64,000 nt of DNA from Eledone cirrhosa (lineage: Eukaryota): NCBI GenBank assembly GCA_964016885.1, contig OZ024764.1:19282001-19346000 (forward strand). Reading direction: 5' to 3'. This document shows, piece after piece, positions 3,505-46,300 of this stretch (its first letter is position 1; each line of letters starts with the position of its first letter). Below the pieces are notes generated by a model. It worked only from the letters and a program-made list of their open reading frames with translations, was not told where the DNA came from and did no database searches. The position numbers and the translations under genes are program-made.

Positions 3505-4105
3505 GCCCACACTGCAAAGTGGTTGGGTAGGATATATGACAAAAAGCACCCAACCCACACTGTAAAGAACACACAGTCAACATTATAAGGTGGTCATGTA
3601 GGTGATATGACAAAAAGAAACCAGCCCACACTGCAAAGAACACACAGCCAACACTATAAGGCGGTCATGTAGGTGATATGACAAAAAGAAACCAGCCCAC
3701 ACTGTAAAGCGGTTGCGTAGGTGTCACAGCAAAAGCACCCAGCCCACACTGTAAAGTGGTCATGTAGGTGAAAACAAAAAGAACCCAGCCAAAACTTTAA
3801 AGTGGTCGTGTAGGTATCACAACAAAAAGCACCCAGTCCACACTATAAAGTGGTCATATAGGTGTCACAACAAAAAGCACCCAGCCCACAGTATAAAGTG
3901 GTCGTGATGGTGAGATGGTAAAATGCATCCAGTACTCAATGTAAATAAGGTTGGTGCTAGGAAGGGCATCCAGCTGTAGAAACCAATCCAAAGTTTGTTC
4001 TGTAGGAGCCAGACATGGTCACCTGACCTGGCCTTGCTTACAACAGGATAACTCGTCTAACCCATGCCAGCGTGAAAAAACTGTTGTTAAACAGTGATGA
4101 TGATA
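3505..4105 (+). mobile_element. RTE-3'UTR/SINE-type element with ~48-bp internal tandem repeats (copies 18544-19144, 34540-35000, 51645-52215)
   Basis: Repeats AAAAAGCACCCAGCCCACACTGTAAAGTGGTCATGTAGGTG, then AGGAAGGGCATCCAGCTGTAGAAACC..CCCATGCCAGC..GATGATGAT. Confidence 0.75.
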
Positions 4106-5599: not shown

Positions 5600-6150
5600 A
5601 GAGGGACTGACAGATACAAGACTATCTGGAGAAAGAAGGGTTGGAGAGTAAAAGATCTCCCTGTTAAATATAAGATCTACAGGGATTGTGAGGGAGGTAC
5701 AAGACAACCTAGAAAAAGGGTTGGAGAGTAAACGATCTCCCTGTTAAATATAAGATCTAGAAATACTGTGAAAGAGATACAAGACAATCTAGAGAAAAGG
5801 GTAGGGACAGTAAAAGATCTCCCTGTTAAATATAAGATCTAGAGGGATACCTAGAGAAAAGGGTAGGGATAGTAAAAGATCTCCCTGTTAAATATAAGAT
5901 CTAGAGGGACTGTGAGAGAGGTACAAGACAACCTAGAGAAAAGGGTAGGGATAGTAAAAGATCTCCCTGTTAAATATAAGATCTAGAGGTACTGTGAGAG
6001 AGTTACAAGACAACCTAGAGAAAAGGGTAGAGACAGTAAAAGATCTCCCTGTTAAATATAAGATCTAGAGGAACTATGAGAGAGGTACAAGACAACCTAG
6101 AGAAAAGGGTAGGGACAGTAAAAGATCTCCCTGTTAAATATAAATTCAGA
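5600..6150 (+). repeat. 82-bp minisatellite inside an RTE endonuclease remnant, in the 3'UTR intron (copies 20639-21189, 36860-37470, 53755-54005)
   Basis: Unit AAAGATCTCCCTGTTAAATATAAGATCTAGAGGGACTGTGAGAGAGGTACAAGACAACCTAGAGAAAAGGGTAGGGATAGTA; copy number varies (~3-7). Confidence 0.85.
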
Positions 6151-6887: not shown

Positions 6888-8003
6888 CTAAACTTCTGTA
6901 TGAATACGCACATGCTTGGTTAAGTTACTACGGGGAGAGAATGATTTACCACAGATGTCACAGTGATATGGCTTCTCTCCTGTATGAGTACGTTTGTGAG
7001 TAGTTAGGTTATGACTACAAGTGAATGATTTACCACAGATATCACAGTGATATGGCTTCTCTCCTGTATGAGTACGTTTGTGGGTAGTTAAGGTATTACC
7101 CTGACTGAATGATTTACCACAGATATCACAGTGATGTGGCTTCTCTCCTGTATGAATTTGTTTGTGAACTCTGACGCTACTACTGTGACTGAATGATTTA
7201 CCACAGATATCACAGTGATATGGCTTCTCTCCTGTATGAATACGTTTGTGAGTAGTTAGATGATTACTCTGAGAGAATGATTTACCACAGATATCACAAT
7301 GATATGGGTTCTCTCCTGTATGAATACGTTTGTGAGTAGTTAGGTTATTATTTTTAGAGAACGTTTTACCACAGATATCACAGTGATATGGGTTCTCTCC
7401 TGTATGAATACGTTTGTGAGTAGTTAGGTGATGACTACAAGTGAATGATTTACCACAGATATCACAATGATATGGGTTCTCTCCTGTATGAATACGTTTG
7501 TGAGTAGTTAGGCTATTATTTTTAGAGAACGTTTTACCACAGATATCACAGTGATATGGTTTCTCTCCTGTATGAATACGTTTGTGATTAGTTAAGGTAT
7601 TATTGTGACTGAATGATTTACCACAGATGTCACAGTGATATGGCTTCTCTTCTGTATGAATACGTTTGTGAACTCTGACGCTACTACTGTCACTGAATGA
7701 TTTATCACAGATATCACATTGATATGGCTTCTCTCCTGTATGAATACGTTGGTGTTTAAGGAAGCTACTTCTGCCAGGGAATGATTTACTACAGATGTCA
7801 CAGTGATATGGCTTCTCTCCTGTACCAATACACTTATGAATAGTTAAGGTATAAGTTTGAGAAAATGATTTACCACAGATATCACAGTGATATGGCAACT
7901 CTTCCGTATGATTTAGTTTGTGTCTAGTTAATTTATTATTTTTAGAGAATGATTTACCACAGATATCACAGTGGAATGGTGATTTTACTATATTTTTCGA
8001 CAT
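6888..8003 (-). CDS. C2H2 zinc-finger protein, 371 aa, 13 tandem fingers (finger 2 degenerate), no effector domain (gene 1)
   Basis: ORF of repeated CDICxKxFxxxxxLxxHxxxH-TGEKPY 28-aa units after an 11-aa leader MSKNIVKSPFH. Confidence 0.93.
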   Translation of the reverse strand: MSKNIVKSPFHCDICGKSFSKNNKLTRHKLNHTEELPYHCDICGKSFSQTYTLTIHKCIGTGEKPYHCDICSKSFPGRSSFLKHQRIHTGEKPYQCDICDKSFSDSSSVRVHKRIHTEEKPYHCDICGKSFSHNNTLTNHKRIHTGEKPYHCDICGKTFSKNNSLTTHKRIHTGENPYHCDICGKSFTCSHHLTTHKRIHTGENPYHCDICGKTFSKNNNLTTHKRIHTGENPYHCDICGKSFSQSNHLTTHKRIHTGEKPYHCDICGKSFSHSSSVRVHKQIHTGEKPHHCDICGKSFSQGNTLTTHKRTHTGEKPYHCDICGKSFTCSHNLTTHKRTHTGEKPYHCDICGKSFSPRSNLTKHVRIHTEV

Positions 8004-9382
8004 ATCTCATAAAAGATATCAATCACCTCAGTTTCTCACATAATTCACAGTTTTAATATTTTTCTCCTCTCAATATATGGATAGTTTTCTTCTTTATGTT
8101 TATAATATTATTCTTAAAACATATTCGTCCAGATATATTTTTATCAACTTTGGTCTTTCTTTATATTTAAAGATGATACAAACTGTTTTGTAGATCTCTT
8201 CAAGTTTAATATACATATAAAATCATCTTGTACATATTCCAGACAGTGAAGAATCTAATTTTTCTGGTTTTTATTTGATTAGTTATTCCTGTAATAATGG
8301 AAATATTTCTACTCCTGTAGTTCCATCAACTATCATCTTTGTCAATATATGAAGATCTTACAAAATCATGTGTAAATTTCTTCAGCTTTATTTTGTATCT
8401 TCTACATATTCCAGACAGCAAAGAATAGAAGTGTTATTGAGTTTACAAGAAATATTTCCCAGTATTTCTCCCATAGATTTATATAAACAAGGTTGTGTCT
8501 GTTCTGTATAACAGCTTCCTTTAGTCTTTAAATAATGGTGTTGATGAAACAACTGATATAAAAGTGTTTTATCCTTTTCATACCAGTCTTTATATTTATC
8601 TAAAAACTTTCCATTATAACTTCATGAAATTGTACAAAGTTATGTTCCAAATAGCAGCTTAATACTGAGAAATTTAGTTATATTACTAAATCCCTTGAAA
8701 GTGTTGAGTGTTTTCAAAATTATTTGAAAATGATGGGTAGTGTCTTTCATTAGAAATGATTAATATTGAGGATATGTCTGATGTAACGTGCTCTTTAATG
8801 CCAATGTCCTCTGGTATTCTGAAATAATAAAAGAACATTATAAGATTCTCAGAAACTTGTAATACATCAGTACAAATTTCATATAATATTTCTATATTGA
8901 TAAATGGACTGTAATAAATACTAAGGCCTTCTTTGGTGAAGAATGTGCTGACTAACATAGGTTATTTATTAGTGGCAGTAGATTATACTGACTGATAAAA
9001 GTAGTTATTAGTGGCATTAGATTATACTGACTGATAAAAGTAGTTATTAGTGACATTAGATTATACTGACTGATAAAAGTAGTTATTAGTGACATTAGAT
9101 TATACTGACTGATAAAAGTAGTTATTAGTGACATTAGATTATACTGACTGATAAAAGTAGTTATTAGTGATATCAGATTAACCCTTTAGTATTCACATTA
9201 CTCTATATTTACTATTATATTTTCACAGTAAATGCTTTATCTCACATAATATCAAATCTATGAGATTTTGATGTTACTTATTTTGAGAACAATACCTTAA
9301 CATAAGTATAAGTGACCAGTTACGGCCAGTTTGAACAGAAAGATGTGGGAGAATTCTGGCCAGATATGGCCAGTTTATAGAA

Positions 9383-11650
9383 ATTAGGTGTAGAAGAATG
9401 GCTTGTGAGAAGCTGTCAGTAAAGTGTGTCTAGTGAGGAATTGAAGGTACAGGTAGGAGTTCATCATGGTTTAGTTCTTAGCCCACTGTTGTTCATCATA
9501 GTTCTCCAAGCCATAACAGAGAGGTTTAAGACTGGCTGTCTATGGAAACTTCTCTATGTAGATGACCAGCTATAGATATAGAATTTGAAATGGTAAGTTC
9601 TGAGAATATACTTAGCCAAAACTAAAGTGGTAATGGATAGGAGAGAAGACCCTGACCCCTTCAGGAAAGTGGCCCTGCTCCATATGTAGAAAAGGAATAA
9701 GTAGAGATAACCACAATGACAGAGGTCAAAGATCTAGTTATAATAGCAGGGGACTTCAATGGTCATGTTGGACAGCTCCAGGATGGATACACTGGGGTAC
9801 ATGGTGGTCATGGTTATGGCTCAAGAAATGAAGAAGGAATGAGGCTTCTTGTATTTTGTGATGTAAGTGAACTAACCATTTGCAACACTTCAAGAAACCT
9901 ACCAACCACCTAATAACCTACCAATCAGGTGAGCACATGAGACAGATTTACTTCTTGCTAGTTAGGGAGTAAGACAGATAGATGGTGTCAAATACTAAGG
10001 CATACCCCAGGGAACAATGTAACCCCCCAACATAGGTTAGTCGTTAGTGACATCTCAGTAAGCAAGAGACAAAGAGAGACATACAAGAAGGTGTGAAAAA
10101 GGAAGGTCTAGAAATTAAAAGACCTTTCACTAAAATATAAATTTAGGCGCGCCCTTCAAGATGTGTATGATGAAAAAGAAGACGTTTTAGCGTCGTATGA
10201 CATAGATGACAACTGGAATTTCTTACGTGACAGTAGACCCGACAGAAGGACCAGCTATTGAGATTGACGACTATAGGGTCCAAGAGGTAATTAAGGAAAG
10301 GAAAAATTGAGGTCTGCTGGACTGTTGGGGATAGTTGCTGAGATGCTAAAGGCATCAGGGGATGTAGGAAGTAAACTGGTTGCATGCATCATTAATCAAG
10401 CTATATATGGTGGTGTCATACCCAAAGACTGGTGCAGCAGTATTCTCATAAATTGAGGTAAAGGTAAAGGGGATGTTCTGGAGAGGAGTAATTATATGGG
10501 CATAAAACTGATGGATCAGGTTATGAAAGTGACAGAAAGAATACTAGCGCAACTTAGAGAAAGGGTCAAACAGATGCCCTCTTCTTAGTGAGACAACTAC
10601 TAGAGAGGTTCTTAGAGAAGAATAAACTACTATACTTAGCTTTTGTTCACCTAGAAAAGGCCTTTGATAGAGTACCCCAATCTGTCATCTGGTGGTCCCT
10701 AAGGAAACTAGGTGTAGAGGAATAGTTTGTGAGGACAATGCAAGCTATGTACAGAGGTGGTGTCAGTAAAGTGAGGGTAGGAATGGAGTTTAATAAGGAA
10801 TTCCAGATACAAGTAGGAGTACATCAGGGTCGGTCCTCAGCCCGCCCTTGTTCATTATAGGCCTCCAAGCCATAAAAGAGGAGTTTAAGACTGGCTGCCC
10901 ATGGGAACTTCTCTAGGCTGACGATGTGGTTCTTATAGCAGAATCAGTAGAGGAGCTAGAGCATAAATTCTGGCTATGGAAACAGCAGTTGGAAGCAAGA
11001 GGACCGAGAGTGAACCTAGCTAAGACAAAAGTGTTGATGAGTAGAAAAGAGGACAAAACTCTCATTCCATCAGGGAAATGGCCTTTTTCAATATGTAGAA
11101 AAGGAACTGGCATAAATTCTATAATGTACACAATGCAGATTTTGGGTACACAAGAAATGTAGTGGGATAGCAGGCAAACTAACAGGTAGGGAAAACTACA
11201 TATGCAGTAGAGGTACAGGGAAATTTGACAGTAGAAGTCACATTGATAGACACATTTTTCAAATGCAGATAGGTTCTATAGAAGTGGTTGATAGCTTCCG
11301 GTATCTAGGTGATCAAATTAGCATGGGAGGAGGGTGCTCAGAGGCCATAGTATCTAGAATAAGGACGGGTTGGAAGACGTTTAGGGAGCTGCTTGCTCTG
11401 TTGACAAAGAAGGGTTTCTCCCTAAGAACGAATGGCTGATGATGCCTGCGTGAGATGTGTGATGCTGCACGGTAGTGAGACATGGACAGTAACTGTGGAG
11501 GATATGCGATGGCTGGAGAGAAATGAAACAAGTATGCTCCGTTGGATGTGCAATGTCAATGTGCATCAACGACCAAGCATAGATGAGTTGAGAGAGAATG
11601 CACAACATGGCCATACCAGTGCATGTGTCTCCTGTGAAACACATCCTTGA
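9383..11650 (+). mobile_element. Decayed RTE-clade LINE, composite (copy 24422-26689; truncated at 42200-42822 and 58519-59141)
   Basis: APE motif IIAGDFNGHVG; RT motifs FVHLEKAFDRVP and GVHQG; MLHGSETW..MLRWMC. Confidence 0.85.
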
Positions 11651-11654
11651 GGTT

Positions 11655-12005
11655 GTCGATCAGCAGTTTTTTTAGGAGCTCAGTTGAGCTGACATCATCC
11701 TCAATGGTCACACTACACATCCAGTGGATCATAGCTCTGTCATTTCTTCAGAGTCAATTCAGACAGTCAGATAACATGGCCCAGGTCTCGCTGGCATGAA
11801 ACAACACACTTCTCCCACAGGTGTTATAAATCTGCCCCATGGTGTCTAATGGTAGCCAGCATGTCTTGAGGATTAGGAGAAGCTGCCTAAACTTGTTACC
11901 TGTGGAGTGGCACAGCACAATGGCAGTGAACTTGGCTCCACTTCCAGCTGACATCTCACACAGGTAGCAGAAAGATGTCACCACATCCAGCTTGTCCTCA
12001 CCAAC
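11655..12005 (-). mobile_element. Inverted RTE LINE fragment (copy 26694-27044)
   Basis: VTSFCYL..KFRQLL..GRSVLFHASETW on the minus strand. Confidence 0.72.
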
Positions 12006-12032
12006 AGGCCTCTAGTTATAAAGGTTATCATT

Positions 12033-12320
12033 GACCAACACTGACACCCCTCAGGGTAGACTGAACCAACACTTACACCCCCAGGGGTGGACTGAACCAA
12101 CACTAACACCCCCCAGGGTGGACTGAACCAACACTAACATCCCCCAGGGTGTACTGAACGAACACTAACACCCCCCAGAGTGGACTGAACCAACACTAAC
12201 ACCCCCCAGAGTGGACTGAACCAACACTAACACCCCCAGAGTGGACTGATCCAACACTAACATCCCCCAGGGTAGACTGAACCAACACTTACACACCCCA
12301 GCGTGGACTGAACCAACATT
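12033..12320. repeat. ~31-bp minisatellite, ~9 units (copy 27072-27359)
   Basis: GTGGACTGAACCAACACTAACACCCCCCAGA repeats. Confidence 0.9.
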
Positions 12321-12784: not shown

Positions 12785-13549
12785 TAAGATTATAAATACA
12801 AACACACATAAGATAGAATCTACTCAAACCTTAATATCTCAGACCCCAGTAGATTACTGGAACTTTAATTTATCCACTCCGTTAGAATGAAAGACAAAGT
12901 TAACTTTGGTGGGATTTGAACTCATAACATAAAGGGTTGAAATCCCGCCGAGGTTAGCTTTGCCCTTCATCTTTACGGGGTTGATTTAAGATCTTATAAT
13001 AGTTTCTGATTAAGACACAAGATCGACAATGTTTCGGGGGGGGGGGGGGGAATAAGTTGATTAAATCAAACACGGTTACTGTGAGATCACTTCTTTGATA
13101 GTTTGTTTAAAAATAACTGATTCACAATTTACGTATGAAAAGTTGACAAAGATTTACAAATGGTGTTATCAATAAATAGGGCCTTCAAAGTAGCAGGAAA
13201 CGACTAGATTTGTAGATGAAGAAGTGGGAGACAGGATTATCAGAGTTCAGAAGAGCTACACACTTCTTCAGTTGGCTGGGAAATGATTATCTTTCCTTAA
13301 TTTTATTTCTCGACCTCTTAGATGTTTGCAATCGACTTTTCTTCCTGAAAACGGAAACCCTAACCCTAATACTGGGGAATAAAACGTCTATTGCAAGTAT
13401 CGAAGGGGTCCAGAGAAAATATTGAAAAGGGGCCTAGAAAAAAATCTAAGAAAAATAATTTCCCACCCAACGTGAGGTGTGAGTAGATCTGTGAAACTAC
13501 ATCTCTTCGTATACTTTCACCCTACTTTTTCTACAAATCTAGTCGTTTC

Positions 13550-13740
13550 CGTGAGGGTACCTGGTTATTTCAGCCCCTTAGACTCACCTTACTGAGGTGT
13601 TAGGTGATATCCGTAAGGGTACCTGGTTATCTCAGCACCTTAGCCTCACCTTACCGAGGTGTCAGGTGATACCCGTGAGGGTTCCTGGTTATTTCAACAC
13701 CTTAGTAATGCTGCCAGTGTGTTGGCTTGCCTCAAAGTGT
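13550..13740 (+). repeat. ~62-bp tandem repeat from the CRE C-terminus (3 units here and at 28588-28778; 2 units at 43189-43332 and 59508-59651)
   Basis: GTGAGGGTACCTGGTTATTTCAGCACCTTAGCCTCACC repeats, ending in AASVLACLK-coding DNA. Confidence 0.78.
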
Positions 13741-14233
13741 GTAGTTAACCCCTAAGGTGTGAGGTGTGGCCTATTATCACACCTGGTGGTCAATTGCCAT
13801 CTCCCACTGTGTTTTTCTTTCCTTTATCATTATTGTTCAATAAATTATATTATTATACACAGTTTAGACAATATATTTGTAATGTCTTTCTCAAGGAATT
13901 GCCAGCAATTTATAATGTTATTTACACACGTTATTTATGTATATATTTAAAACATATTTACAACGTTATTCTACTGTAAATTTATACAATTGTAATAAAA
14001 TATATTAATTATATCATCACATAATATAAAAACGACCTTTAGAATATTTAAATATTTAGTTTTGTTAATTTATTTTTCAGCAACAACAAAAGTTTTCACT
14101 TTAATTAATTAGAGGTAGGTAAAATATAGATAATTACGATAACATTTTATATTTCCAGTAATGAAACAAACAAGAAAATATATATTTGTGATGTGAAAAG
14201 TGAGCTTAAATCTACAATATTAATAGACATAAT

Positions 14234-14365
14234 ACTTACATTATAGTCTCAGGTGTTTAGTATTTACAGAAATGTTTTCTAAATGATGTTGGAGGAAGAC
14301 TAACACGTGGACAGGAAGTCGACAACTGCACCACTGCGCATGCTTCAATGTTTTTTTTGTGACGT
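14234..14365 (-). promoter_or_regulatory. Putative promoter and non-coding exon 1 of ZNF gene 1
   Basis: Clustered TGACGT (14360), TGCGCATGC NRF1-like (14335), CAGGAAGT ETS (14312) and CACGTG (14304), then a minus-strand donor AAT|GTAAGT at 14240/14239, all in AT-rich DNA. Confidence 0.6.
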
Positions 14366-14446
14366 AAATATTTTTACCGAATTAAATTATGTAAAGTTTC
14401 TAATAATAAAAATGAAAGTTGAAATCAGTAAATGTAATTAAAATAG

Positions 14447-14852
14447 AACAGCTAAGTACTCTTACAGAGATCACCGGGTACTTCGGTAAGATCGGGTCAT
14501 ATGGGGGCTAAGTTGCCAGAACAACTAAGTACCCTGACAGAGATCACCGGGTATCTCGGTAAGATCGGGGTCATATGGAGGCTAAGCTACCAGAACAGCT
14601 AAGTACCTTGACTGAGATCACCGGGTATCTCGGTAAAATCATGTCATGTGGAGGCTAAACCGCCAGAACAGCTAAGTACACTGACAGAGATCACCGGGTA
14701 TCTCAGTAAAATCATGTCATGTGGAGGCTAAACCACCCAAACAGCTAAGTACCCTCACAAGAGTCATCGGGTACTTCGGTAAAGCCAGCTGCCAACAGTG
14801 ACAACAACATCGTTGTCAGCAGCCCAGCTTCTCAAACATCACAGACTGGAAT
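14447..14852 (-). repeat. 73-bp minisatellite within a minus-strand CRE 3' fragment (also 1-190, 29485-29963, 48078-48603)
   Basis: Unit ~AGAACAGCTAAGTACCCTGACAGAGATCACCGGGTATCTCGGTAAGATCGGGTCATATGGAGGCTAAGTTGCC; its reverse complement aligns to CRE LTEV.GD..EG.WLFQHLSL DNA. Confidence 0.8.
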
Positions 14853-15542
14853 AAATACTTTGCCGATAATTACTGGTAGTTTAGCTTTTATTTCGTTCGT
14901 CTACGGAAGCAGTGACCCTCACTTTTACTACAGCATGTAGGATGTGGGAGGGAGACAAAAACATCACTAATGTGACAATTAGTTTTGAAAATACATATAC
15001 AAGATACAAGATAAATGACTAGACTGAAATATATTTGATAGGGAATAAAGAGTAGAATATTCTAGTCTGTGGTGTTGGAGAAGTTTGGAGGAGATAGGTC
15101 CCTGACAACGAGGTTCTTGTTATCGTTGGCAGCTCTCCTTACCGAGGTGTCAGGTGATACATATGAGGGTGTTTGGTAGTTCCAACATCTTAGCCTTGCT
15201 ATCACTCGAGGTAAGACTGTCTCAGAAAGTATTAGAGGGAGACTCCAGCACCCCATGTGATGTGAGACTGATTGACAGAGTGTTGACTTAATATTTTCAT
15301 TTGTTGTGATTCTATGTGAAATATATCTCTATGTAAGTAACTTGGTTACGTGAATCATTGTGAATCTCGTAAATACTTAAACAGAAATCTACTTAGGACA
15401 CAAAATAAAGCAGGTTCCATTGAACAAAGTATTTAAAGGACGTATATCAAAAAGAAGGGTGGATGTAACGAGAGTTGTCTCCCCTTACATATGTAATACA
15501 GTAGCGTATGTTTGTGTGTTTCTCTCTCTATATATATTTTTT

Positions 15543-15758
15543 ATGATCGACATTTCGTCAAATCGGACCGAGGAAACAATGTTTCCATTGGTCTTTCCAA
15601 TTGCTAATACTATCTATCGGTTGCAACTCTAGGTAGAAGGAGCAACGTGAAATAAAATGTCTTGCTCAAGGATATAACGCATCGCCTAGTCTGAGAATCG
15701 AACTCACAACCTCACAATTCCGAATCCAATTCTCTAACCACTCAGCCACACGCCTTCA
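15543..15758 (-). mobile_element. tRNA-derived SINE (copy 30654-30869; inverted headless relative at 49365-49530)
   Basis: Minus strand GGCGTGTGGCTGAGTGGTTAGAG (A box)...GAGTTCGATTC (B box)...CCTTGAGCAAGACA; flanked by (TA)n. Confidence 0.75.
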
Positions 15759-16565
15759 TATATATATATATGAAAAAGATATCGTTTTTTTACAAAAACA
15801 TTATAAAATAATAGAAGGTGAAGTTAAAACAGCTCAACATACAGTAATTTATTATAATAAACACTACAAAAGACTGTCTCATACTTCTTTGAAAGATGTT
15901 TTCAAACAAACACGTGTACAAAATCCTATTGTGTTAAAAGTAATAATTACGTATGAAACAAATTATTCATTAAAGTAATTAGCAAATACGTTTTTATATA
16001 TGGTGTCTAGCAGAGGGACCCACTCGCCTCACTCCTATTGGTGGTGACAGTTGACAACATGGTCTAGTCACCCCTGTCTAGTACCTAGATGACACAACCC
16101 TGGGTGGCCCGGCTGAGACAGGTTAAGGCATCTCTATACCCCAGTATATTACAGTCCAACATAACTGGGATGACATCAATTGTAGGTCTCTTCACACCGG
16201 TCACCATTGAGACCTCAGAAGTACTTGGACCCCGTACTGCCAAGCTCCTCTGTAAGATCAGAACGTTGGTGGCCCTTCTGAAGAGGGAGCCCCATGAGGT
16301 TGGGGTGGCTGTTGCAGTGGGTGTCACTGTCCATCGTCCGGGGCGAATACTTTTGCAGTCTTATCCACAGGGCGCAGCACTTCTGCCCCTTGACCTAGAC
16401 CCAAAGCTCAATTATTTGCTTGTTGCTGTGAGGACTTTCGTATTTAGTTCTTTTATGACTCTTCTTTGAAATGTAGTCTTTGTCTCATGTGGTGACCTCC
16501 TGGTAGTTAATGTAGCAGAACACACTGAAGGACATGCTGCCTTCCCTAGTGTTGGTAACCTACAT

Positions 16566-17928
16566 CAGACATGTCAAACATGCGGCCCTTTGCAAGGAAA
16601 GCTGCGGCGCACACAAAGGTTTTTACAGTGCCACCATGTTTCATTTTCGTAATATAAAATTTAAAAATTATTTCGATACAAATGTTTTTTTTGTGCAATT
16701 TTTGTCAACTATTTTTAATTTCCATTAATCACGTGCAGCTCATTAACAGAAAACTTTCTTTCAAAATTTCAAAAGTTTTTGTTTTTGAAATGGTTAGTGC
16801 TCCTCCAGCTAAGAGAAAAAGGAAATTGAATGAAGAAGGGCAAGTGTTTCAAGAAAAGTGAGAATTACAGTATTTTTGCTCAATGCTGAACAGAAAGATA
16901 CACTGTTTAATTTGCAACAACTACATCGCCACGCCAAAAGAGTACAATTTAAAAAGACATTATGAAACAAACCCTCGATCTTACGATAAATATGAAGCCC
17001 CAATGTGTGTTTCAAGACTCAAGGAATTGAAGTCTAACTTGACACAGGAATAGACCTGTTTTATGTTAATTCAGGAAGAGAATGTCACTTCCGTTACTGC
17101 AAGCTATGAACTCAGTCGAATGATTGCCATGAGTGGGAAATCTTACAGTGAAGGAGATTTTGTAAAGCAATGTCTTGTAAAAACAGCTGAAATTGTCCAG
17201 AGAAAGCAGAGTTATTCAAAGACATTTCATTAACCAGGAACACTGTTGCTGAACAGATTAATGAAATGTCAGGTGATCTGAAACAACAGTTAAAGGCTGT
17301 ATCATCAAGGTTTGAACATGTTTCTATTGCTATTGATGAGACTGTTGACATCACTGGAATAGTACAGCTTGCATTCTTCATCAGGGCCTGTGACAGTGAA
17401 TTTAATATTTATGAAGAACTGATTGAACTGGTCCCCAAACATGACACTATAACAAGCCAGGACATCTTTGAGAAGGTCAAGCAGGGTCTGCATGGTTTTG
17501 ATCTGAGTAAACTTGCATGTTTATCTACTGACAGTGCTGCAAATATGGTTGGTAGACATAATGGTGTTGCTGCCAAGTTACAAACAAAAATAGAAAACTC
17601 ATATCTAGATTCATCATTTGCACATTTTCACTGTATTATTCATCAGCAAAATTTATGTTCAAAGATTTTAAAATTGCATCATGTGCTTAGCTTGGTCACA
17701 AAGACAGTGAACTAAATCAGAGGCCATGCTCTCAACCACCAGATAATCAGTTCACCGATGTTCCATTCTACACAGAAGATCTAAATTTAAGTAACAAATC
17801 TTTCTGCAATATATTTTATTAAATGACTTTAATTAGTTGTTGTGTACATAATTAGTTGCACTGTGCAACCCTCAGACAACACATGTGACCTATGTGGCCC
17901 TTAGGGAACCCTCAGTTTGTTATGCCTC
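16566..17928 (+). mobile_element. hAT transposon fossil, chimeric copy
   Basis: Same TIRs and TSD; left part matches the 31677 copy, right part matches the 1528 copy. Confidence 0.88.
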
Positions 17929-19569
17929 ACCTACATGATAAACACACCCAACACAGGCTGTAATGTGGTTGGTCATGTGAAGGACATCTAGCCATAGAAA
18001 GCTTGCCCGACAATAGTGTTGGAGAACCCTTCAATCATGACAAAAGCATGACAACCTTTTCTGTGCACTCAGTAGCAAATGAGACCTTATGTAAATAAGT
18101 CTCAGATCCTTGGTCTGTCTAGAGATCAGTAGCCTCACTTCAGTACTTACTTGGTTGAAGTAGACTCATTAAACCCTTGCTAGCAGGGAAATCCTGTCAG
18201 AAGTAACCCACCCCAACTGATCTGGCTGGATCTCCCAGAGAGACCAGCCAAGCTCATGGAAGTTATGTGACCATCTTGCTCCAGTGTACCCCTGGGTCTC
18301 CTGCAGGTTAGTTTTGCCTGTAAAATCTATCCAGTGATTCGTTCCTTAAAAGACCCTTCAGACGAATCCCATATCTGCCACTTGTATTCGCAATCATATT
18401 CTTTTGGTCATTACCCAAGATATGTGACCATAGGTAAGGGTTGGCACAAAAACTTAATTGAAGACAGCAAGTTTGGCTTTTATGCCTACCTCCCTTCTTC
18501 TGATTACTGAATATTGGAACTGGTGCATTACTGATATTTCACTGCCCACACTGCAAAGTGGTTGGGTAGGATATATGACAAAAAGCACCCAACCCACACT
18601 GTAAAGAACACACAGTCAACATTATAAGGTGGTCATGTAGGTGATATGACAAAAAGAAACCAGCCCACACTGCAAAGAACACACAGCCAACACTATAAGG
18701 CGGTCATGTAGGTGATATGACAAAAAGAAACCAGCCCACACTGTAAAGCGGTTGCGTAGGTGTCACAGCAAAAGCACCCAGCCCACACTGTAAAGTGGTC
18801 ATGTAGGTGAAAACAAAAAGAACCCAGCCAAAACTTTAAAGTGGTCGTGTAGGTATCACAACAAAAAGCACCCAGTCCACACTATAAAGTGGTCATATAG
18901 GTGTCACAACAAAAAGCACCCAGCCCACAGTATAAAGTGGTCGTGATGGTGAGATGGTAAAATGCATCCAGTACTCAATGTAAATAAGGTTGGTGCTAGG
19001 AAGGGCATCCAGCTGTAGAAACCAATCCAAAGTTTGTTCTGTAGGAGCCAGACATGGTCACCTGACCTGGCCTTGCTTACAACAGGATAACTCGTCTAAC
19101 CCATGCCAGCGTGAAAAAACTGTTGTTAAACAGTGATGATGATATAACATTTGTTTAATAATGAATTCCAATCTCATTGTTAACAGCTATAGATGTCAGG
19201 ATGTGAACCTTCTTACTGAAATATCTTCTCCATGTTAGTGGCTGAAGAAGATTTAGAAAACTTTCACACAATAACCGTATTCCCTAACTTCTCCCCTAAA
19301 AAATACAAGACAAGCAGGGCCAGACTTTTACCTACTGAAGCCCTAAGCTATATGAAATTAGAGGTTCTTCTCTAAAAATATATAATTATCTTTTATATTA
19401 ATGTTAATGATAAAGAATAAATAATATAATAAATATACCACCATAGGTGCTGAGGTGGCTAGCTGCTGGTGTGAGCCTCACGAGATGGAATGGCTCTTCC
19501 AGCACATCTAGAACAACATGACCCTCTAATATCTAAATGATTTTTAATAGTTAAAATATACACATACGT

Positions 19570-26000: not shown

Positions 26001-29000
26001 CATAAATTCTGGCTATGGAAACAGCAGTTGGAAGCAAGAGGACTGAGAGTGAACCTAGCTAAGACAAAAGTGTTGATGAGTAGAAAAGAGGACAAAACTC
26101 TCATTCCATCAGGGAAATGGCCTTTTTCAATATGTAGAAAAGGAACTGGCATAAATTCTATAATGTACACAATGCAGATTTTGGGTACACAAGAAATGTA
26201 GTGGGATAGCAGGCAAACTAACAGGTAGGGAAAACTACATATGCAGTAGAGGTACAGGGAAATTTGACAGTAGAAGTCACATTGATAGACACATTTTTCA
26301 AATGCAGATAGGTTCTATAGAAGTGGTTGATAGCTTCCGGTATCTAGGTGATCAAATTAGCATGGGAGGAGGGTGCTCAGAGGCCATAGTATCTAGAATA
26401 AGGACGGGTTGGAAGACGTTTAGGGAGCTGCTTGCTCTGTTGACAAAGAAGGGTTTCTCCCTAAGAACGAATGGCTGATGATGCCTGCGTGAGATGTGTG
26501 ATGCTGCACGGTAGTGAGACATGGACAGTAACTGTGGAGGATATGCGATGGCTGGAGAGAAATGAAACAAGTATGCTCCGTTGGATGTGCAATGTCAATG
26601 TGCATCAACGACCAAGCATAGATGAGTTGAGAGAGAATGCACAACATGGCCATACCAGTGCATGTGTCTCCTGTGAAACACATCCTTGAGGTTGTCGATC
26701 AGCAGTTTTTTTAGGAGCTCAGTTGAGCTGACATCATCCTCAATGGTCACACTACACATCCAGTGGATCATAGCTCTGTCATTTCTTCAGAGTCAATTCA
26801 GACAGTCAGATAACATGGCCCAGGTCTCGCTGGCATGAAACAACACACTTCTCCCACAGGTGTTATAAATCTGCCCCATGGTGTCTAATGGTAGCCAGCA
26901 TGTCTTGAGGATTAGGAGAAGCTGCCTAAACTTGTTACCTGTGGAGTGGCACAGCACAATGGCAGTGAACTTGGCTCCACTTCCAGCTGACATCTCACAC
27001 AGGTAGCAGAAAGATGTCACCACATCCAGCTTGTCCTCACCAACAGGCCTCTAGTTATAAAGGTTATCATTGACCAACACTGACACCCCTCAGGGTAGAC
27101 TGAACCAACACTTACACCCCCAGGGGTGGACTGAACCAACACTAACACCCCCCAGGGTGGACTGAACCAACACTAACATCCCCCAGGGTGTACTGAACGA
27201 ACACTAACACCCCCCAGAGTGGACTGAACCAACACTAACACCCCCCAGAGTGGACTGAACCAACACTAACACCCCCAGAGTGGACTGATCCAACACTAAC
27301 ATCCCCCAGGGTAGACTGAACCAACACTTACACACCCCAGCGTGGACTGAACCAACATTTACCACAGGTCTATAAATAACTGTATTACCCTATCATGATA
27401 CTATAACATTATAAACCTAAAACTCTGTGATTGTGTCTTGTCTGTAATGTAATACAGCTAAAACGGGGCATAACGGGAAAATAGTTTGAAAGGAAGTTGA
27501 CCCTGAAATGGGAATACAAATGGGATAAAATAAGTTTCACGTAAATCAGAGCACAGGTTCCCGAGATATGGGTTTTTTCTGGTACCTTTATAAATAGAGA
27601 GAGAAAGATAATGGGGGTGTGTGAGAGAGATAGCTGGTGATGCTGTTGAACAAAGTTATAAAATTAGAACAAGTGACTTGTGTGTGTCTGTGACAGACAT
27701 TCATATATATATATATATATACTACTAATTTCATTTTAGATTATAGACATGTCTGTGTATATTTTAATTATTTAAAAATTATTTTTAAAGGGAACGTGAC
27801 CCAACGGGTCACAGGTGTTCTAGTAAGATTATAAATACAAACACACATAAGATAGAATCTACTCAAACCTTAATATCTCAGACCCCAGTAGATTACTGGA
27901 ACTTTAATTTATCCACTCCGTTAGAATGAAAGACAAAGTTAACTTTGGTGGGATTTGAACTCATAACATAAAGGGTTGAAATCCCGCCGAGGTTAGCTTT
28001 GCCCTTCATCTTTACGGGGTTGATTTAAGATCTTATAATAGTTTCTGATTAAGACACAAGATCGACAATGTTTCGGGGGGGGGGGGGGAATAAGTTGATT
28101 AAATCAAACACGGTTACTGTGAGATCACTTCTTTGATAGTTTGTTTAAAAATAACTGATTCACAATTTACGTATGAAAAGTTGACAAAGATTTACAAATG
28201 GTGTTATCAATAAATAGGGCCTTCAAAGTAGCAGGAAACGACTAGATTTGTAGATGAAGAAGTGGGAGACAGGATTATCAGAGTTCAGAAGAGCTACACA
28301 CTTCTTCAGTTGGCTGGGAAATGATTATCTTTCCTTAATTTTATTTCTCGACCTCTTAGATGTTTGCAATCGACTTTTCTTCCTGAAAACGGAAACCCTA
28401 ACCCTAATACTGGGGAATAAAACGTCTATTGCAAGTATCGAAGGGGTCCAGAGAAAATATTGAAAAGGGGCCTAGAAAAAAATCTAAGAAAAATAATTTC
28501 CCACCCAACGTGAGGTGTGAGTAGATCTGTGAAACTACATCTCTTCGTATACTTTCACCCTACTTTTTCTACAAATCTAGTCGTTTCCGTGAGGGTACCT
28601 GGTTATTTCAGCCCCTTAGACTCACCTTACTGAGGTGTTAGGTGATATCCGTAAGGGTACCTGGTTATCTCAGCACCTTAGCCTCACCTTACCGAGGTGT
28701 CAGGTGATACCCGTGAGGGTTCCTGGTTATTTCAACACCTTAGTAATGCTGCCAGTGTGTTGGCTTGCCTCAAAGTGTGTAGTTAACCCCTAAGGTGTGA
28801 GGTGTGGCCTATTATCACACCTGGTGGTCAATTGCCATCTCCCACTGTGTTTTTCTTTCCTTTATCATTATTGTTCAATAAATTATATTATTATACACAG
28901 TTTAGACAATATATTTTTAATGTCTTTCTCAAGGAATTGCCAGCAATTTATAATGTTATTTACACACGTTATTTATGTATATATTTAAAACATATTTACA

Positions 29001-29271
29001 ACGTTATTCTACTGTAAATTTATACAATTGTAATAAAATATATTAATTATATCATCACATAATATAAAAACGACCTTTAGAATATTTAAATATTTAGTTT
29101 TGTTAATTTATTTTTCAGCAACAACAAAAGTTTTCACTTTAATTAATTAGAGGTAGGTAAAATATAGATAATTACGATAACATTTTATATTTCCAGTAAT
29201 GAAACAAACAAGAAAATATATATTTGTGATGTGAAAAGTGAGCTTAAATCTACAATATTAATAGACATAAT

Positions 29272-29403
29272 ACTTACATTATAGTCTCAGGTGTTTAGTA
29301 TTTACAGAAATGTTTTCTAAATGATGTTGGAGGAAGACTAACACGTGGACAGGAAGTCGACAACTGCACCACTGCGCATGCTTCAATGTTTTTTTTGTGA
29401 CGT
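29272..29403 (-). promoter_or_regulatory. Putative promoter/exon 1 of ZNF gene 2
   Basis: Identical to 14234-14365. Confidence 0.58.
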
Positions 29404-31676
29404 AAATATTTTTACCGAATTAAATTATGTAAAGTTTCTAATAATAAAAATGAAAGTTGAAATCAGTAAATGTAATTAAAATAGAACAGCTAAGTACTCT
29501 TACAGAGATCACCGGGTACTTCGGTAAGATCGGGTCATATGGGGGCTAAGTTGCCAGAACAACTAAGTACCCTGACAGAGATCACCGGGTATCTCGGTAA
29601 GATCGGGGTCATATGGAGGCTAAGCTACCAGAACAGCTAAGTACCTTGACTGAGATCACCGGGTATCTCGGTAAAATCATGTCATGTGGAGGCTAAACCG
29701 CCAGAACAGCTAAGTACACTGACAGAGATCACCGGGTATCTCGGTAAAATCATGTCATGTGGAGGCTAAACCGCCAGAACAGCTAAGTACACTGACAGAG
29801 ATCACCGGGTATCTCAGTAAAATCATGTCATGTGGAGGCTAAACCACCCAAACAGCTAAGTACCCTCACAAGAGTCATCGGGTACTTCGGTAAAGCCAGC
29901 TGCCAACAGTGACAACAACATCGTTGTCAGCAGCCCAGCTTCTCAAACATCACAGACTGGAATAAATACTTTGCCGATAATTACTGGTAGTTTAGCTTTT
30001 ATTTCGTTCGTCTACGGAAGCAGTGACCCTCACTTTTACTACAGCATGTAGGATGTGGGAGGGAGACAAAAACATCACTAATGTGACAATTAGTTTTGAA
30101 AATACATATACAAGATACAAGATAAATGACTAGACTGAAATATATTTGATAGGGAATAAAGAGTAGAATATTCTAGTCTGTGGTGTTGGAGAAGTTTGGA
30201 GGAGATAGGTCCCTGACAACGAGGTTCTTGTTATCGTTGGCAGCTCTCCTTACCGAGGTGTCAGGTGATACATATGAGGGTGTTTGGTAGTTCCAACATC
30301 TTAGCCTTGCTATCACTCGAGGTAAGACTGTCTCAGAAAGTATTAGAGGGAGACTCCAGCACCCCATGTGATGTGAGACTGATTGACAGAGTGTTGACTT
30401 AATATTTTCATTTGTTGTGATTCTATGTGAAATATATCTCTATGTAAGTAACTTGGTTACGTGAATCATTGTGAATCTCGTAAATACTTAAACAGAAATC
30501 TACTTAGGACACAAAATAAAGCAGGTTCCATTGAACAAAGTATTTAAAGGACGTATATCAAAAAGAAGGGTGGATGTAACGAGAGTTGTCTCCCCTTACA
30601 TATGTAATACAGTAGCGTATGTTTGTGTGTTTCTCTCTCTATATATATTTTTTATGATCGACATTTCGTCAAATCGGACCGAGGAAACAATGTTTCCATT
30701 GGTCTTTCCAATTGCTAATACTATCTATCGGTTGCAACTCTAGGTAGAAGGAGCAACGTGAAATAAAATGTCTTGCTCAAGGATATAACGCATCGCCTAG
30801 TCTGAGAATCGAACTCACAACCTCACAATTCCGAATCCAATTCTCTAACCACTCAGCCACACGCCTTCATATATATATATATGAAAAAGATATCGTTTTT
30901 TTACAAAAACATTATAAAATAATAGAAGGTGAAGTTAAAACAGCTCAACATACAGTAATTTATTATAATAAACACTACAAAAGACTGTCTCATACTTCTT
31001 TGAAAGATGTTTTCAAACAAACACGTGTACAAAATCCTATTGTGTTAAAAGTAATAATTACGTATGAAACAAATTATTCATTAAAGTAATTAGCAAATAC
31101 GTTTTTATATATGGTGTCTAGCAGAGGGACCCACTCGCCTCACTCCTATTGGTGGTGACAGTTGACAACATGGTCTAGTCACCCCTGTCTAGTACCTAGA
31201 TGACACAACCCTGGGTGGCCCGGCTGAGACAGGTTAAGGCATCTCTATACCCCAGTATATTACAGTCCAACATAACTGGGATGACATCAATTGTAGGTCT
31301 CTTCACACCGGTCACCATTGAGACCTCAGAAGTACTTGGACCCCGTACTGCCAAGCTCCTCTGTAAGATCAGAACGTTGGTGGCCCTTCTGAAGAGGGAG
31401 CCCCATGAGGTTGGGGTGGCTGTTGCAGTGGGTGTCACTGTCCATCGTCCGGGGCGAATACTTTTGCAGTCTTATCCACAGGGCGCAGCACTTCTGCCCC
31501 TTGACCTAGACCCAAAGCTCAATTATTTGCTTGTTGCTGTGAGGACTTTCGTATTTAGTTCTTTTATGACTCTTCTTTGAAATGTAGTCTTTGTCTCATG
31601 TGGTGACCTCCTGGTAGTTAATGTAGCAGAACACACTGAAGGACATGCTGCCTTCCCTAGTGTTGGTAACCTACAT

Positions 31677-40644: not shown

Positions 40645-41987
40645 TTAGTTATTAGTGGCAGTAGATTATACTGACTGATAAAAGTAGTTATTAGTGACAT
40701 TAGATTAAACTGACTGATAAAAGTAGTTATTAGTGGCAGTAGATTAAACTGACTGATAAAAGTAGTTATTAGTGACATTAGATTAAACTGACTGATAAAA
40801 GTAGTTATTAGTGATATTAGATTATACTGACAGATAAAAGTAGTTATTAGTGACATTAGATTATACTGACTGATAAAAGTAGTTAATAGTGACATTAGAT
40901 TATACTGACTGATAAAAGTAGTTAATAGTGACATTAGATTAAACTGACTGATAAAAGTAGTTATTAGTGACATTAGATTAAACTGACTGATAAAAGTAGT
41001 TATTAGTGACATTAGATTATACTGACTGATAAAAGTAGTTATTAGTGACTTTAGATTATACTGACTGATAAAAGTAGTTATTAGTGACATTAGATTATAC
41101 TGACTGATAAAAGTAGTTAATAGTGACATTAGATTATACTGACTGATAAAAGTAGTTAGTAGTGATATTAGATTAAACTGACTGATAAAAGTTATTAGTG
41201 GCATTAGATTATACTGACTGATAAAAGTAGTTATTAGTGACATTAGATTAAACTGACTGATAAAAGTAGTTAGTAGTGACATTAGATTAAACTGATTGAT
41301 AAAAGTAGTTATTAGTGACTTTAGATTATACTGACTGATAAAAGTAGTTATTAGTGGCAGTAGATTAAATTGACTGATAAAAGTAGTTATTAGTGACATT
41401 AGATTATACTGACTGATAAAAGTAGTTATTAGTGACATTAGATTATACTGACTGATAAAAGTAGTTAGTAGTGACATTAGATTAAACTGATTGATAAAAG
41501 TAGTTATTAGTGACTTTAGATTATACTGACTGATAAAAGTAGTTATTAGTGGCAGTAGATTAAATTGACTGATAAAAGTAGTTATTAGTGGCAGTAGATT
41601 AAACTGACTGATAAAAGTAGTTATTAGTGACATTAGATTATACTGACTGATAAAAGTAGTTAGTAGTGACATTAGATTATACTGACTGATAAAAGTAGTT
41701 ATTAGTGACATTAGATTATACTGACTGATAAAAGTTATTAGTGACATTAGATTAAACTGACTGATAAAAGTAGTTATTAGTGACATTAGATTATACTGAC
41801 TGATAAAAGTAGTTAATAGTGACATTAGATTAAACTGACTGATAAAAGTTATTAGTGGCATTAGATTATACTGACTGATAAAAGTAGTTATTAGTGACAT
41901 TAGATTAAACTGACTGATAAAAGTAGTTATTAGTGACTTTAGATTATACTGACTGATAAAAGTAGTTATTAGTGACATTAGATTAAC
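40645..41987. repeat. 39-bp minisatellite, ~34 units (about 5 units at 8962-9180 and 24001-24219)
   Basis: Unit TTATTAGTGACATTAGATTATACTGACTGATAAAAGTAG with occasional 36-bp variants. Confidence 0.95.
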
Positions 41988-43376: not shown

Positions 43377-46300
43377 TATAAATTCAATTTATTCACGTTT
43401 ATAATAACATATATAATGACACAATGCTTAGAGGAAAGTCATAGAATCACTTATATCAACACAAGTGGATAAGTTCCTTCAGACTGAAAATATAAACAGA
43501 GCATATAAATAAATTTACAGTAGAATAACATAACAAATATGTTTTAAATATATAAATAACATTGCAAATGCCTCGGTAACACTATAAAGGATGATACAAT
43601 GAAAGATAAATTCCTTCAATGTTGCAATATTAAAGAAAATGTAAAGGAAGGGGTGGACAACGGAGCCAACACCAGAGCAAAAGACAGCAACGAGGGGTAC
43701 TGGGAAACCGCTCTAATGAGTTTTGAGGCAAGCCAGCACACTGGCAGTGTTACCTCGGGTGATGGCGAGGCTGAGGTGCTGAAACAGCCAAACGCCCTCG
43801 CGATTTCGCCAGTTACCTCTATAAGGCGAGCCGCCAGTGAGGAAAGGAACCTCGCAGTCAGTGACCCGACTCCCCCAAACGTCTCGAAAGCCACAGGCCA
43901 AAAAATGTAGCTGGTCGACAGATCAGAGTATTTGAGGGTCTTACTCCGCTCGGCTGCCGAAGCTGTGGCTCTCGTCCTTACCGCAGCATCAAGGATATGG
44001 GAAAGAGCAAAGGAGTCACTAACAGTGACGTCCCAGATTAAGCACCTGCCTCTCGACCAGGGGCACAGGGTAAGGCTGTCAGGTCTTTTGCCGTCACTTC
44101 TGGACAACCCAGATGGTTCCAAGACTGAGGGGATGTTTGCCCGGGCCAAAGCTCTCTTCAGAATAAAGTTTAGCTCCGTGTGACGGGTGAAGTGGTCGGC
44201 ATTCAGGCGGCAAGAAAGACCGTGGAGGCCTGTGGAGTGGAGGAGTTAGCCACATCTCAAACCCATGCAGACGTCAGCTCCCAGTCTGAGGGTGATGGAG
44301 ACACAAAGTTCATCCAGGCTGAGTAGGCCTCCAACGTTGGCCACGGGTAAGGCATCGACCCAGTCACCGGAGTATTTGGCGCTGGCAGATGGTAAGCGGC
44401 ACCTTGTAAACTGATCTGAGAGGACAAAGAGGGAGTCGAAGGTGGCATTCCAACGTATCCTGTCCCAAGTTCTCTGACTTCGACTGTCCTCCACCTTCTC
44501 AGGAAGAGACAAGCCCAACTCACTCCATTGCTGGAGAGCTTCACACAACTCCCTGTTGGAACTAGTCCATGTTGGAGAGGAGAGGATGCTGCAAGCTTGG
44601 GTGGAGGAAAGGAAGCAGGGGAGAGAGAGGGACGAACACTTACTAACATTGACCAGACACTCGAGTCTCTCGAAGATTAGGTCGTCGAAGCGTTGGAGGC
44701 AGGATGGAAATCTGTGAGAGGGGCTGACTCTGAGCAGATACAGAAGCTTAGGAATAGACAGGTAGTTCCTGAGTAAGAAGAAACCTTGATGGGGTTCGAT
44801 ATCTTCAATATTCCTCAGCAGCTGCTCAAGGCCAACCATCTTCGATTGGATGGTTGACTCGAAGGCCAGGTCTGTGATTGGGGCTCCTAAGGAGCACCAA
44901 GCCGACGGGGGAGGGACCGTGATGCAAGGGAAGGACTCTGCGAACAGGTCGATCAGCTGTTGGTGTTAAGAAGCCGGGTGGTTGAGGATCCAGAGCTCAC
45001 ATTTGGAGCTATTGATCTGGAGACCCCGGCGCCAAGCTCCTCCACCATCCTGTTGGCAGTGGCGAGAACCATATCCGGAGTTCCCCCCACCAGGCGTCGT
45101 CGAGCTACCAGACATTGAGGTCCAACTCAGCCCCCATCATGGTGACGTCATCAATGTCCAGTGCGGGGAGGGGGGGTGTCCCCGAGTGGGTCACCCTGTT
45201 GAACTCCTGAGGCAGAGGTGATGATCTGGTCACTGAAAGAGAGGTAGGAGGGCTCCCGATAAGCCTGCCAAGCAAAGTGGTAGAGTTGTGGGACCCTCTC
45301 TCTTACTGAGCCGAGGACGATGTTACGGCTGACGGAGTTGAAGGCATTCCTGAGGTCAAGTTTGAGGATGACCTTGGGGGATGAGGAGGGCAAGTTGGCA
45401 AATGCTCTGGCCGCGTGGACAGCAGCCACACATCCCAACCTGGTACCCACCCACAGCTGGATGGGGGAAAATTCCTCCGCCAGTGGGTTGGAGACCAACA
45501 GCAATCACGCCTTTGCAGTGAGGCGGCGAGGTGTGCAGCCAACCGCAATGCGGCGCAGGTCCCCGTTGGGCTTGGTGAGACCAAATAGCTTCGCACCGAA
45601 GAACAGTGGGCGGATGAACGGGAGAAGGTTCACCGATTCACAAACTGAGTCAGACTCTCCAAGAGCTCGAGTCCGGCATCACCGGCCGATAAGGAGATAC
45701 CATCCTTGAGATGTTGAGGATGAAGGACGTCAATTCCCGCGCCTGACCCAGCGGGGAAGGATGAAATCGCCTTTCTGATGATATTGGTGGTGTAAACCAG
45801 TCCCAAGTATTCTGGTGGTTCGGGCCAGTGTTGCTGATCATCTGGGGGTGCTTCTCTTTCAGACGCTCACGAGAGTCAGAGTTGCATGGAGCAAGGGAGG
45901 ACAGCCTCTTTAATGTCAAATTCGGTGAGTTTGGCATTGACGGCTCGCTTGAGGTCTACCGGTTGTCTGTTGGTGGACACCGAGCTCGGAGACGAACTGA
46001 GATGAGACGTGGTTGGGGTGGACTCAAACAGCTGGGACTGCCGCTTGAGAGAGGACTTGAGGGAACCCGAGTTCGCATTGTGCACGTGAAGAGAGATGAG
46101 GGGAAACAAAAACAATTTCTGCCAGACTATTGTTGGACGAGCAAACGTTTTTCAGTAAATTAGAGAGGGCACCTGCAAAGCTGTTCCGAGCTCCCTTAAG
46201 GGTCCGGTTAACGAGCTTTGATTTGGAGAAGCCCTGGGAGGGGCTGTGGCAAAGTCGTCGGTAGAGTGTTGGTCATCCCCACGGAATAGTCGGAGCTGAA

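Follow-up and report, generated by a model that had tools for sequence, protein, structure and literature searches.

A 64,000-nucleotide (nt) stretch of the Eledone cirrhosa genome (NCBI GenBank assembly GCA_964016885.1, contig OZ024764.1, positions 19,282,001 to 19,346,000, forward strand; hereafter, the window) contains a tandem array of genes for C2H2 zinc-finger (ZNF) proteins, and around their predicted promoter lie diverged fragments of putative CRE-type retrotransposons, all covering the C-terminal segment of the restriction-like endonuclease (RLE). The explanation that we favor, with a probability of about 0.4, is a self-nesting hot spot like that of Cnl1 in Cryptococcus, which was passively amplified with the ZNF array. 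CRE elements would have landed in or beside earlier copies, giving three or four insertions and a younger one in the tail of the first fragment. Target-primed reverse transcription would have left 5'-truncated copies, local slippage would have made their 62- and 73-nt repeats, and the redundant gene array would have tolerated insertions beside the promoter while unequal crossing-over spread them, multiplication of the ZNF unit having taken the single ancestral locus to an estimated few hundred copies. This explanation edges ahead of a general preference for open promoter DNA, which is close behind.

The window consists of 15-16.5 kb units, each with one single-exon C2H2 ZNF open reading frame (ORF) on the minus strand. 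Identity between units 1 and 2 is 99.5% across 13.9 kb; a second lineage is made up of units 3 and 4, and all units in the window trace back to one locus. In unit 1 the gene is represented by:

6888-8006, minus strand: C2H2 ZNF coding exon with 13 fingers, presumed to be the gene of the predicted promoter

Among contigs of a public sequencing run (X1), the one matching the promoter has a depth of 2,647 (1 difference in 281 nt) and the one matching fragment p3 a depth of 2,564 (2 differences in 329 nt). Six diverged CRE contigs have depths of 5.5-12.9; taking these as single loci, the unit contigs exceed them by a ratio of 205-484, and by contig depth the ZNF unit has been copied roughly 200-500 times. 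In restriction-site-associated DNA (RAD) reads, 3,253 molecules begin at one promoter site, compared with 16-188 at the other listed starts. Because the pile-up is one ancestral locus in hundreds of copies, a genome-wide test for enrichment at ZNF promoters would be pseudo-replicated.

The four fragments (p1-p4) lie at the places and on the strands given by an initial annotation of the window, and their translations (F.P.A.ET.G..G...RE..WLFQ.LSLAI.RGN type) confirm that each covers the RLE C-terminal segment:

13549-13742, plus strand: p1, 5'-truncated CRE-type RLE C-terminus ending in a stop (hidden Markov model (HMM) score 9.0 bits; 27.6 bits for the unit-3 copy)
13743-14010, plus strand: 3' untranslated region (UTR) of p1, with a hairpin and AATAAA signals
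14445-14976, minus strand: p2, the oldest RLE remnant, without a stop or 3' UTR
15045-15425, plus strand: p3, RLE C-terminus and 3' UTR ending near AATAAA at ~15404 (23.9 bits; E 4e-11 to P0001)
15995-16565, plus strand: p4, internally deleted copy of another subfamily (3' boundary approximate)
28586-31675, unstranded: unit-2 copies of p1-p4
47421-49191, unstranded: unit-3 copies of the distal p1 UTR, the promoter, p2 (interrupted) and p3

The last segment of p1 is amplified as a 62-nt tandem repeat (x2.5), and p2 is a 73-nt tandem repeat (x4.6 in unit 1, x5.6 in unit 2); the repeat number of both varies among units. Initially described as a 3'-end fragment at 14447-14852, p2 has the strand and segment assigned to it, but it reaches ~14976 and is not a true 3' end because it has no stop or 3' UTR. 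It stands head-to-head with p3, with ~70 nt between them. In p4, the reverse transcriptase (RT) motifs QGDPL..YLDD are joined directly to the RLE end, making it an internal-deletion derivative, and its DNA divergence of 39-52% from p1-p3 bears out the earlier assignment to a different subfamily. Since p4 is not present in the spacer between units 3 and 4, no single unit contains all five CRE pieces (p1-p4 and the long copy described below). In unit 3, ~260 nt of other DNA (48107-48365) splits p2, ~100 nt from the promoter motifs.

Searches of the window with a protein HMM and with tblastn, both from 160 homologues, and with a DNA profile of the pieces (0 matches in the shuffled window) yielded no RLE 3' end beyond the copies of these pieces and of the long element, in agreement with the initial annotation. 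Simulated same-family remnants were recovered in 47-60 of 60 cases at 250-400 nt and in 20-60 of 60 at 150 nt. A remnant of a distant subfamily may lie at the edge of detection or be missed, as p4 shows, with an HMM score of just 5.5 bits and no match from the long element. None of the 3' UTR hairpins reached significance (z between -1.9 and +1.5; -1.6 for the p1 hairpin).

Evidence for nesting comes from a long copy in units 3 and 4:

43377-47420, minus strand: near-full-length, broken PHD-RT-ZnK-RLE element in unit 3, inside the p1 3' UTR
59696-63967, minus strand: unit-4 copy of this long element, more complete by 240 nt
13783-13785, plus strand: CTG, the empty site of the long CRE insertion in unit 1

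The proximity of this copy to p1 in units 3 and 4 had been seen correctly, but beyond lying tail-to-tail with p1 it is inserted inside the p1 3' UTR. Comparison of the empty site in unit 1 with the filled sites in units 3 and 4 shows a 3-nt target loss and no target-site duplication (TSD), and the one datable octopus insertion is nested in another CRE (1/1, a single event). The public contigs contain empty-site joints from 43376/43377 to 47421 with CTG/TG between, at depths of 199 and 766; from the total empty-site junction depth of ~965, the long copy may be present, as a very rough figure, in ~60% of units. Within the p1 3' UTR, 13935-13985 is 90% identical to the 3' UTR of the long element (alignment score 92, equaled by 0/200 shuffles), and 13896-14010 could be a separate tail stub rather than part of the p1 3' UTR. 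For this UTR the public contigs give a depth of 20,579 in the bin 47397-47653 and a joint 43601-47531.

The long element has PHD, RT, CCHC knuckle and RLE domains (RVT_1 match with E 3e-4 on a fragment) and the motifs RPDG..WDVT..K..KY and C.CG..H..C, and it is colinear with intact relatives of ~960 aa, one of which matches R2 structures at E 2e-7. By its single ORF with RT, CCHC knuckle and PD-(D/E)xK RLE, it is an RLE-type retrotransposon without long terminal repeats (non-LTR). The best named match of its RLE is an Octopus vulgaris protein (73%), and a relative with 33-46% identity is automatically annotated as "Retrotransposable element SLACS protein"; this annotation and the YLDD/RLE motif style, which we take to be a mark of the CRE clade, suggest that the pieces and the long copy are CRE-type. 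Summed depth (run X1 contigs, 80% identity) climbs 27-fold from 1,927 at the 5' end of the element to 52,169 at the RLE end, compared with ~100,000 for a piece of an RTE-like element and 0.57-1.18 million for two presumed short interspersed element (SINE) bins; depth is not itself a copy number, and the values fit a few thousand 3' ends. An AATAAA signal ~12 nt from the 3' junction accompanies this 3' bias, and no CRE junction appears among the loose ends listed for these contigs. The long element lies on the ZNF strand in the predicted first intron, with its own polyadenylation signal, in perhaps over half of the units, and it could truncate ZNF transcripts or be expressed from the predicted ZNF promoter.

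Relatives in metagenome contigs provide a second line of evidence. Of 80 loci, 77 were kept (L027, L045 and L056 were dropped, as same locus or sharing a flank), and second pieces were excluded at L046, L033 and L038 (weak or by eye), L035 (where the same element is inverted) and L025 (where the element's own tail was the second piece); hosts are mixed, and metagenome contigs tend to end at repeats. A second CRE piece occurred within 500 nt of an end at 10 of the 77 loci (41 kb), whereas none was found in 84 kb of farther flank (p=1.5e-5). Overlapping adjacent pieces are only 58-65% identical and therefore belong to different families. The PHD pattern was found in 0/14 near-full-length metagenome loci and the ZNF linker in 0/80 loci, and we count this adjacency, by analogy, as favoring self-nesting, as we do the ~70-nt spacing of p2 and p3. 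Clustering among the relatives seems to operate through (AAT)n targets: (AAT)n lies just upstream of 15/33 truncated copies compared with 4/295 background tiles, and because an (AAT)n tail terminates 44 of the 80 loci, such relatives would seed their own targets. PHD-less families whose 3' hairpin is conserved and which carry an (AAT)n tail seem to insert into (AAT)n microsatellites, including each other's tails (L016, L023, L026, L028, L033, L034, L044, L049 and others).

The number of insertions was assessed from pairwise DNA divergence (20-52% among the CRE pieces), with an excess of differences at third codon positions taken as the mark of separate active masters (ten tests, uncorrected). 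Such an excess was found for p1-p3 (13/23, p=0.014), p3-p4 (36/80, p=0.015) and p2-p4 (34/77, p=0.04), and for the long copy against p2 and p3 (p<0.01), with a borderline value against p1 (12/24, p=0.06); none was found for p1-p2 (11/28, p=0.28), p1-p4 (18/45, p=0.24) or p2-p3 (17/50, p=0.49). The sequences 3' of p1 and of p3 do not align (160/200 shuffles as good). Both observations argue against the derivation of all four pieces from one insertion, which the initial annotation had considered; unit 1 likely records three or four insertions and the whole locus four or five, although p2 and p3 may be one event. Twin priming for p2 and p3 was rejected because both span the same segment, and a single template-jump event because orientations are mixed and decay is unequal.

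A joint origin of p2 and p3, as one inverted duplication, is part of an alternative that invokes chance and local rearrangement, with old CRE debris much commoner than annotated and the scan having picked one of the windows that chance would provide. In its favor, p2-p3 differences are spread over the codon positions without bias (18/15/17), 20 changes relative to the long copy are common to both, and their private changes (26 in p2 vs 15 in p3) do not differ significantly in a relative-rate test (p=0.12). Against it, depth in the p2 and p3 bins rises little over the unit baseline (5.3-6.6 thousand vs ~2.6 thousand, counting copies with at least 80% identity only), and a search of ~12 kb of the unit and of the unit-specific blocks brought up no other remnant. 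Chance also depends on density. In the available portion of PMC8967140 (Tables S1-S2), long interspersed element (LINE)/CRE makes up 0.17% (O. bimaculoides) and 0.11% (O. vulgaris) of the repeat copies. These shares correspond to 3,700-17,000 copies and, according to the denominator used, to a density of 1 per 140-480 kb; among molluscs CRE is almost confined to cephalopods, as stated in an excerpt of PMC10294476. CRE is thus rare in octopus rather than uniformly dense genome-wide, which makes the pile-up more than uniform chance would produce: per genome, the published density predicts fewer than 0.01 3-kb windows with at least four pieces and up to ~1 with three. A true density of 1 per 14-30 kb would give 3-62 windows with at least four pieces, and ~30% of repeat copies are unclassified in the published counts (PMC8967140, same portion). 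Within the unit, the probability that 3, 4 or 5 random points fall within a 2.9-kb arc is 0.11, 0.029 and 0.007, respectively (post hoc). The pile-up is improbable under uniform insertion unless old debris is heavily undercounted, and we regard the chance alternative as unlikely.

The position of the pile-up relative to the predicted promoter bears on a stronger competitor. The relevant features are:

14304-14367, unstranded: promoter-like cluster of an E-box CACGTG and ETS (CAGGAAGT), NRF1-like (TGCGCATG) and ATF/CRE (TGACGTAA) motifs
14234-14239, minus strand: predicted splice donor GTAAGT of a putative short non-coding first exon
12850-16565, unstranded: CpG-retaining zone enclosing all four pieces

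All four motifs fall within 80 nt, and 0/1000 block shuffles group even three of them, the motifs having been chosen after inspection. In non-CRE DNA of the zone the observed/expected (o/e) ratio of CpG is 0.93, compared with 0.24 in the rest of the unit, as would be expected of a germline-unmethylated promoter domain. The ZNF promoter is thus a prediction from motifs, donor site and CpG retention. A CRE 3' UTR origin was rejected both for promoter DNA 14240-14445 (275/1000 shuffles score equally) and for the p2-p3 spacer (308 and 65/1000).

CRE elements might generally prefer open, unmethylated promoter DNA near germline-active transcription start sites of any gene, this promoter being a hotter site. 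All pieces lie in the 3.7-kb zone centered on the motif cluster (the probability that 3, 4 or 5 all fall in this fixed zone is 0.015, 0.004 and 0.0009), and the junctions of relatives are mildly enriched in promoter motifs (14 in 33.9 kb near them vs 15 in 76.7 kb, p=0.035). This excess is weak, however, and includes overlapping matches, and the argument rests on one ancestral promoter that is itself predicted. CpG decay in methylated DNA would also hide short old pieces elsewhere (20/60 recovered in the harshest simulation). The relatives' CpG o/e is 1.01 near and 0.98 far from the junctions, a test with little power because their hosts show no CpG depletion. On balance we consider such a preference possible but doubtful. 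The proposal that ZNF promoters are a recurrent target stands as far as a hot spot over a promoter-like zone is concerned, but its recurrence would rest on one ancestral promoter that was copied hundreds of times.

Several observations weigh against a self-nesting hot spot. The unit has a single CpG-retaining zone, and this is where the pile-up lies; CRE pieces fill about half of that zone (1,955/3,716 nt), so a promoter-seeking element would often nest too. The apparent clustering of relatives through (AAT)n does not carry over to the octopus locus, because there is no (AAT)3 run in the first 17 kb of the window. The gaps p1-p2 (~430 nt) and p3-p4 (~570 nt, part of it a SINE) exceed the spacing of most adjacent pieces in relatives, the pieces are in mixed orientations, and no junction motif shared among the five pieces was seen by eye.

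A more specific version of targeting would be that a PHD-guided CRE family recurrently selects C2H2-cluster promoters as a multicopy safe haven, a PHD-bearing lineage having swapped fixed-sequence targeting for guidance by chromatin or promoters. The domain in question is:

62608-62745, minus strand: N-terminal PHD finger of the long element (Pfam PHD, E 4e-7, above the cut-off)

Its nearest PDB sequence matches are the H3K4me3-reading fingers of EBS, CFP1, BPTF and TAF3, and its C4HC3 ligands are conserved. Unlike these, it has Ser in place of the cage Trp and Thr in place of the cage Met/Tyr, with a net charge of +6, and it does not have the H3K4me3 cage (a Trp two positions ahead of the His ligand and a Met/Tyr ahead of Cys3). 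Of 154 long relatives, a redundant set biased by a PHD-bearing query, 69 have the PHD pattern. Among these and the octopus finger, 6/70 have the cage Trp and 5/70 the cage Met/Tyr, and 70/70 are net basic (median +6). In a less biased set of 26 Pfam-scanned relatives, drawn from 40 long matches, six matched PHD at E<=0.1, and three of the six matches reached or exceeded the cut-off. A cage-less, basic finger argues against chromatin reading, and the chromatin-reading family that had been suggested is not borne out: H3K4me3 reading is unlikely from these residues, and the domain may instead bind nucleic acid. The widespread lineage P0122, P0161-P0262 consists of intact PHD-RT-RLE proteins of ~960-1070 aa whose PHDs are all basic, with an N-x-R-K motif between the first Cys pairs, and 7 of 120 listed PHD-RT-RLE proteins additionally bear a ubiquitin-specific protease domain (PF00443). 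No relatives of the element were found in scans of a viral-contig and a genome-contig set.

Apart from the PHD itself, the copy counts are compatible with such targeting, since a few thousand copies over the large octopus C2H2 repertoire of ~1,800 genes would amount to a few per gene, and RLE clades are mostly target-specific for multicopy loci according to the available text of PMC4640811. Against it, besides the altered cage and basic charge, PHD-less relatives pile up side by side at loci where no ZNF linker was found, the PHD was read from the long copy and not from p1-p4, a 73%-identical relative sits on a 182-Mb O. vulgaris contig, and this unit type explains <10% of 3'-end depth (~2.6 + 1.9 of 52 thousand). 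We therefore hold selective targeting of C2H2 promoters to be quite improbable; if true, sense-oriented first-intron copies would have been multiplied into the hundreds and might be transcribed from the ZNF promoters.

Retention of the fragments as regulatory DNA of the ZNF genes, also raised initially, is the least probable of the explanations considered. All units examined contain p1-p3, and the p3 contig hardly varies across copies, but the near-identity of p3 copies follows from recent amplification. The promoter motifs lie outside the CRE pieces, the adjoining DNA shows no similarity to the CRE 3' UTR, the repeat number of p1 and p2 differs from unit to unit, and insertions interrupt the two in unit 3; no evidence of retention was found.

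SLACS, CZAR and CRE1/2 at spliced-leader genes and MoTeR at telomeres are site-specific elements of the CRE clade. The octopus element resembles them in domain order, RLE motifs and a multicopy tandem-array host locus, but its pieces occupy five positions over 2.9 kb with no fixed target nucleotide, and its family comprises a few thousand dispersed, 3'-biased copies. No fixed RNA-gene or telomeric-repeat target was identified, with 0 Rfam matches in the window and one tRNA match in a scan of 20 of the 80 relative loci. Cnl1, an RLE non-LTR element closest to MoTeR, is likewise a single-ORF RT-RLE element, mostly 5'-truncated, that enters its own earlier copies. It prefers inserting into itself, with >70% of insertions into earlier copies (PMC12139950, in part) and nested arrays (PMC9942834, in part). 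Cnl1 arrays are tandem, subtelomeric and in the same orientation, with TSDs, whereas the octopus locus has mixed orientations, subfamilies 22-52% apart and a dated insertion without a TSD; the octopus ORF also has an N-terminal PHD, and its site is the flank of a predicted promoter. LINE/CRE is listed as a minor family in octopus genomes in the available portion of PMC8967140, and neither that portion nor the excerpt of PMC10294476 gives its domain structure, target preference or a link to C2H2 clusters. The whole word "CRE" is absent from the available text of PMC9115989 and PMC12988792, and that of PMC13580325 contains nothing about PHD domains. Full-text literature searches, which covered neither Repbase nor most subscription journals, returned no description of PHD-bearing CRE elements or of CRE at C2H2 promoters.

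Other features of the array include two elements that flank the pile-up:

13196-13550, unstranded: miniature inverted-repeat transposable element (MITE)-like element with 34-nt inverted arms, the right arm adjoining the 5' end of p1
16566-17930, plus strand: hAT-type DNA transposon remnant after p4, with a probable 8-nt TSD (ACCTACAT)

The hAT label is our presumption from the transposase sequence and TSD length, and the unit-0 copy has a match to the Spin-doc zinc finger. Where units 1 and 2 carry p4 and hAT, the spacer of units 3 and 4 has Tc5/Tigger-type transposase remnants (49887-51077). A SINE-like sequence with 85% identity occurs at the same place but in opposite orientation in unit 1 (15513-15714) and unit 3 (49366-49565), reflecting either a local inversion or two independent insertions. 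A long APE-RT remnant, which we presumptively name RTE-like, spans 9350-12030, with a weak PHD-like match at 11125-11210, and is mostly deleted in units 3 and 4. Minisatellites of 31, 39, 48, 71 and 82 nt (3527-3903, 5612-6143, 8966-9180, 12034-12318 and 40646-41985) differ in copy number by unit, the 39-mer from 5.5 to 34.6 copies; some look derived from transposable elements (TEs), which would make slippage amplification of TE pieces general in the array. Recent internal expansion has given the unit-4 ZNF gene (55101-56561) a series of nearly identical fingers (FSNNTKLTRHKLSHTEEKPYDC).

The relation between TEs and C2H2 genes in cephalopods is termed an open question in the available part of PMC12513265, and the locus adds a caution, as a single event, counted hundreds of times over, can look like TE enrichment at cephalopod C2H2 genes. 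As a by-product, the analysis yields an intact, widespread PHD-RT-RLE lineage with a basic, cage-less PHD. The locus also offers a testable contrast between distance to older CRE copies and distance to promoters. Either self-nesting or promoter preference would show how an animal RLE retrotransposon chooses its target without a fixed RNA-gene site.

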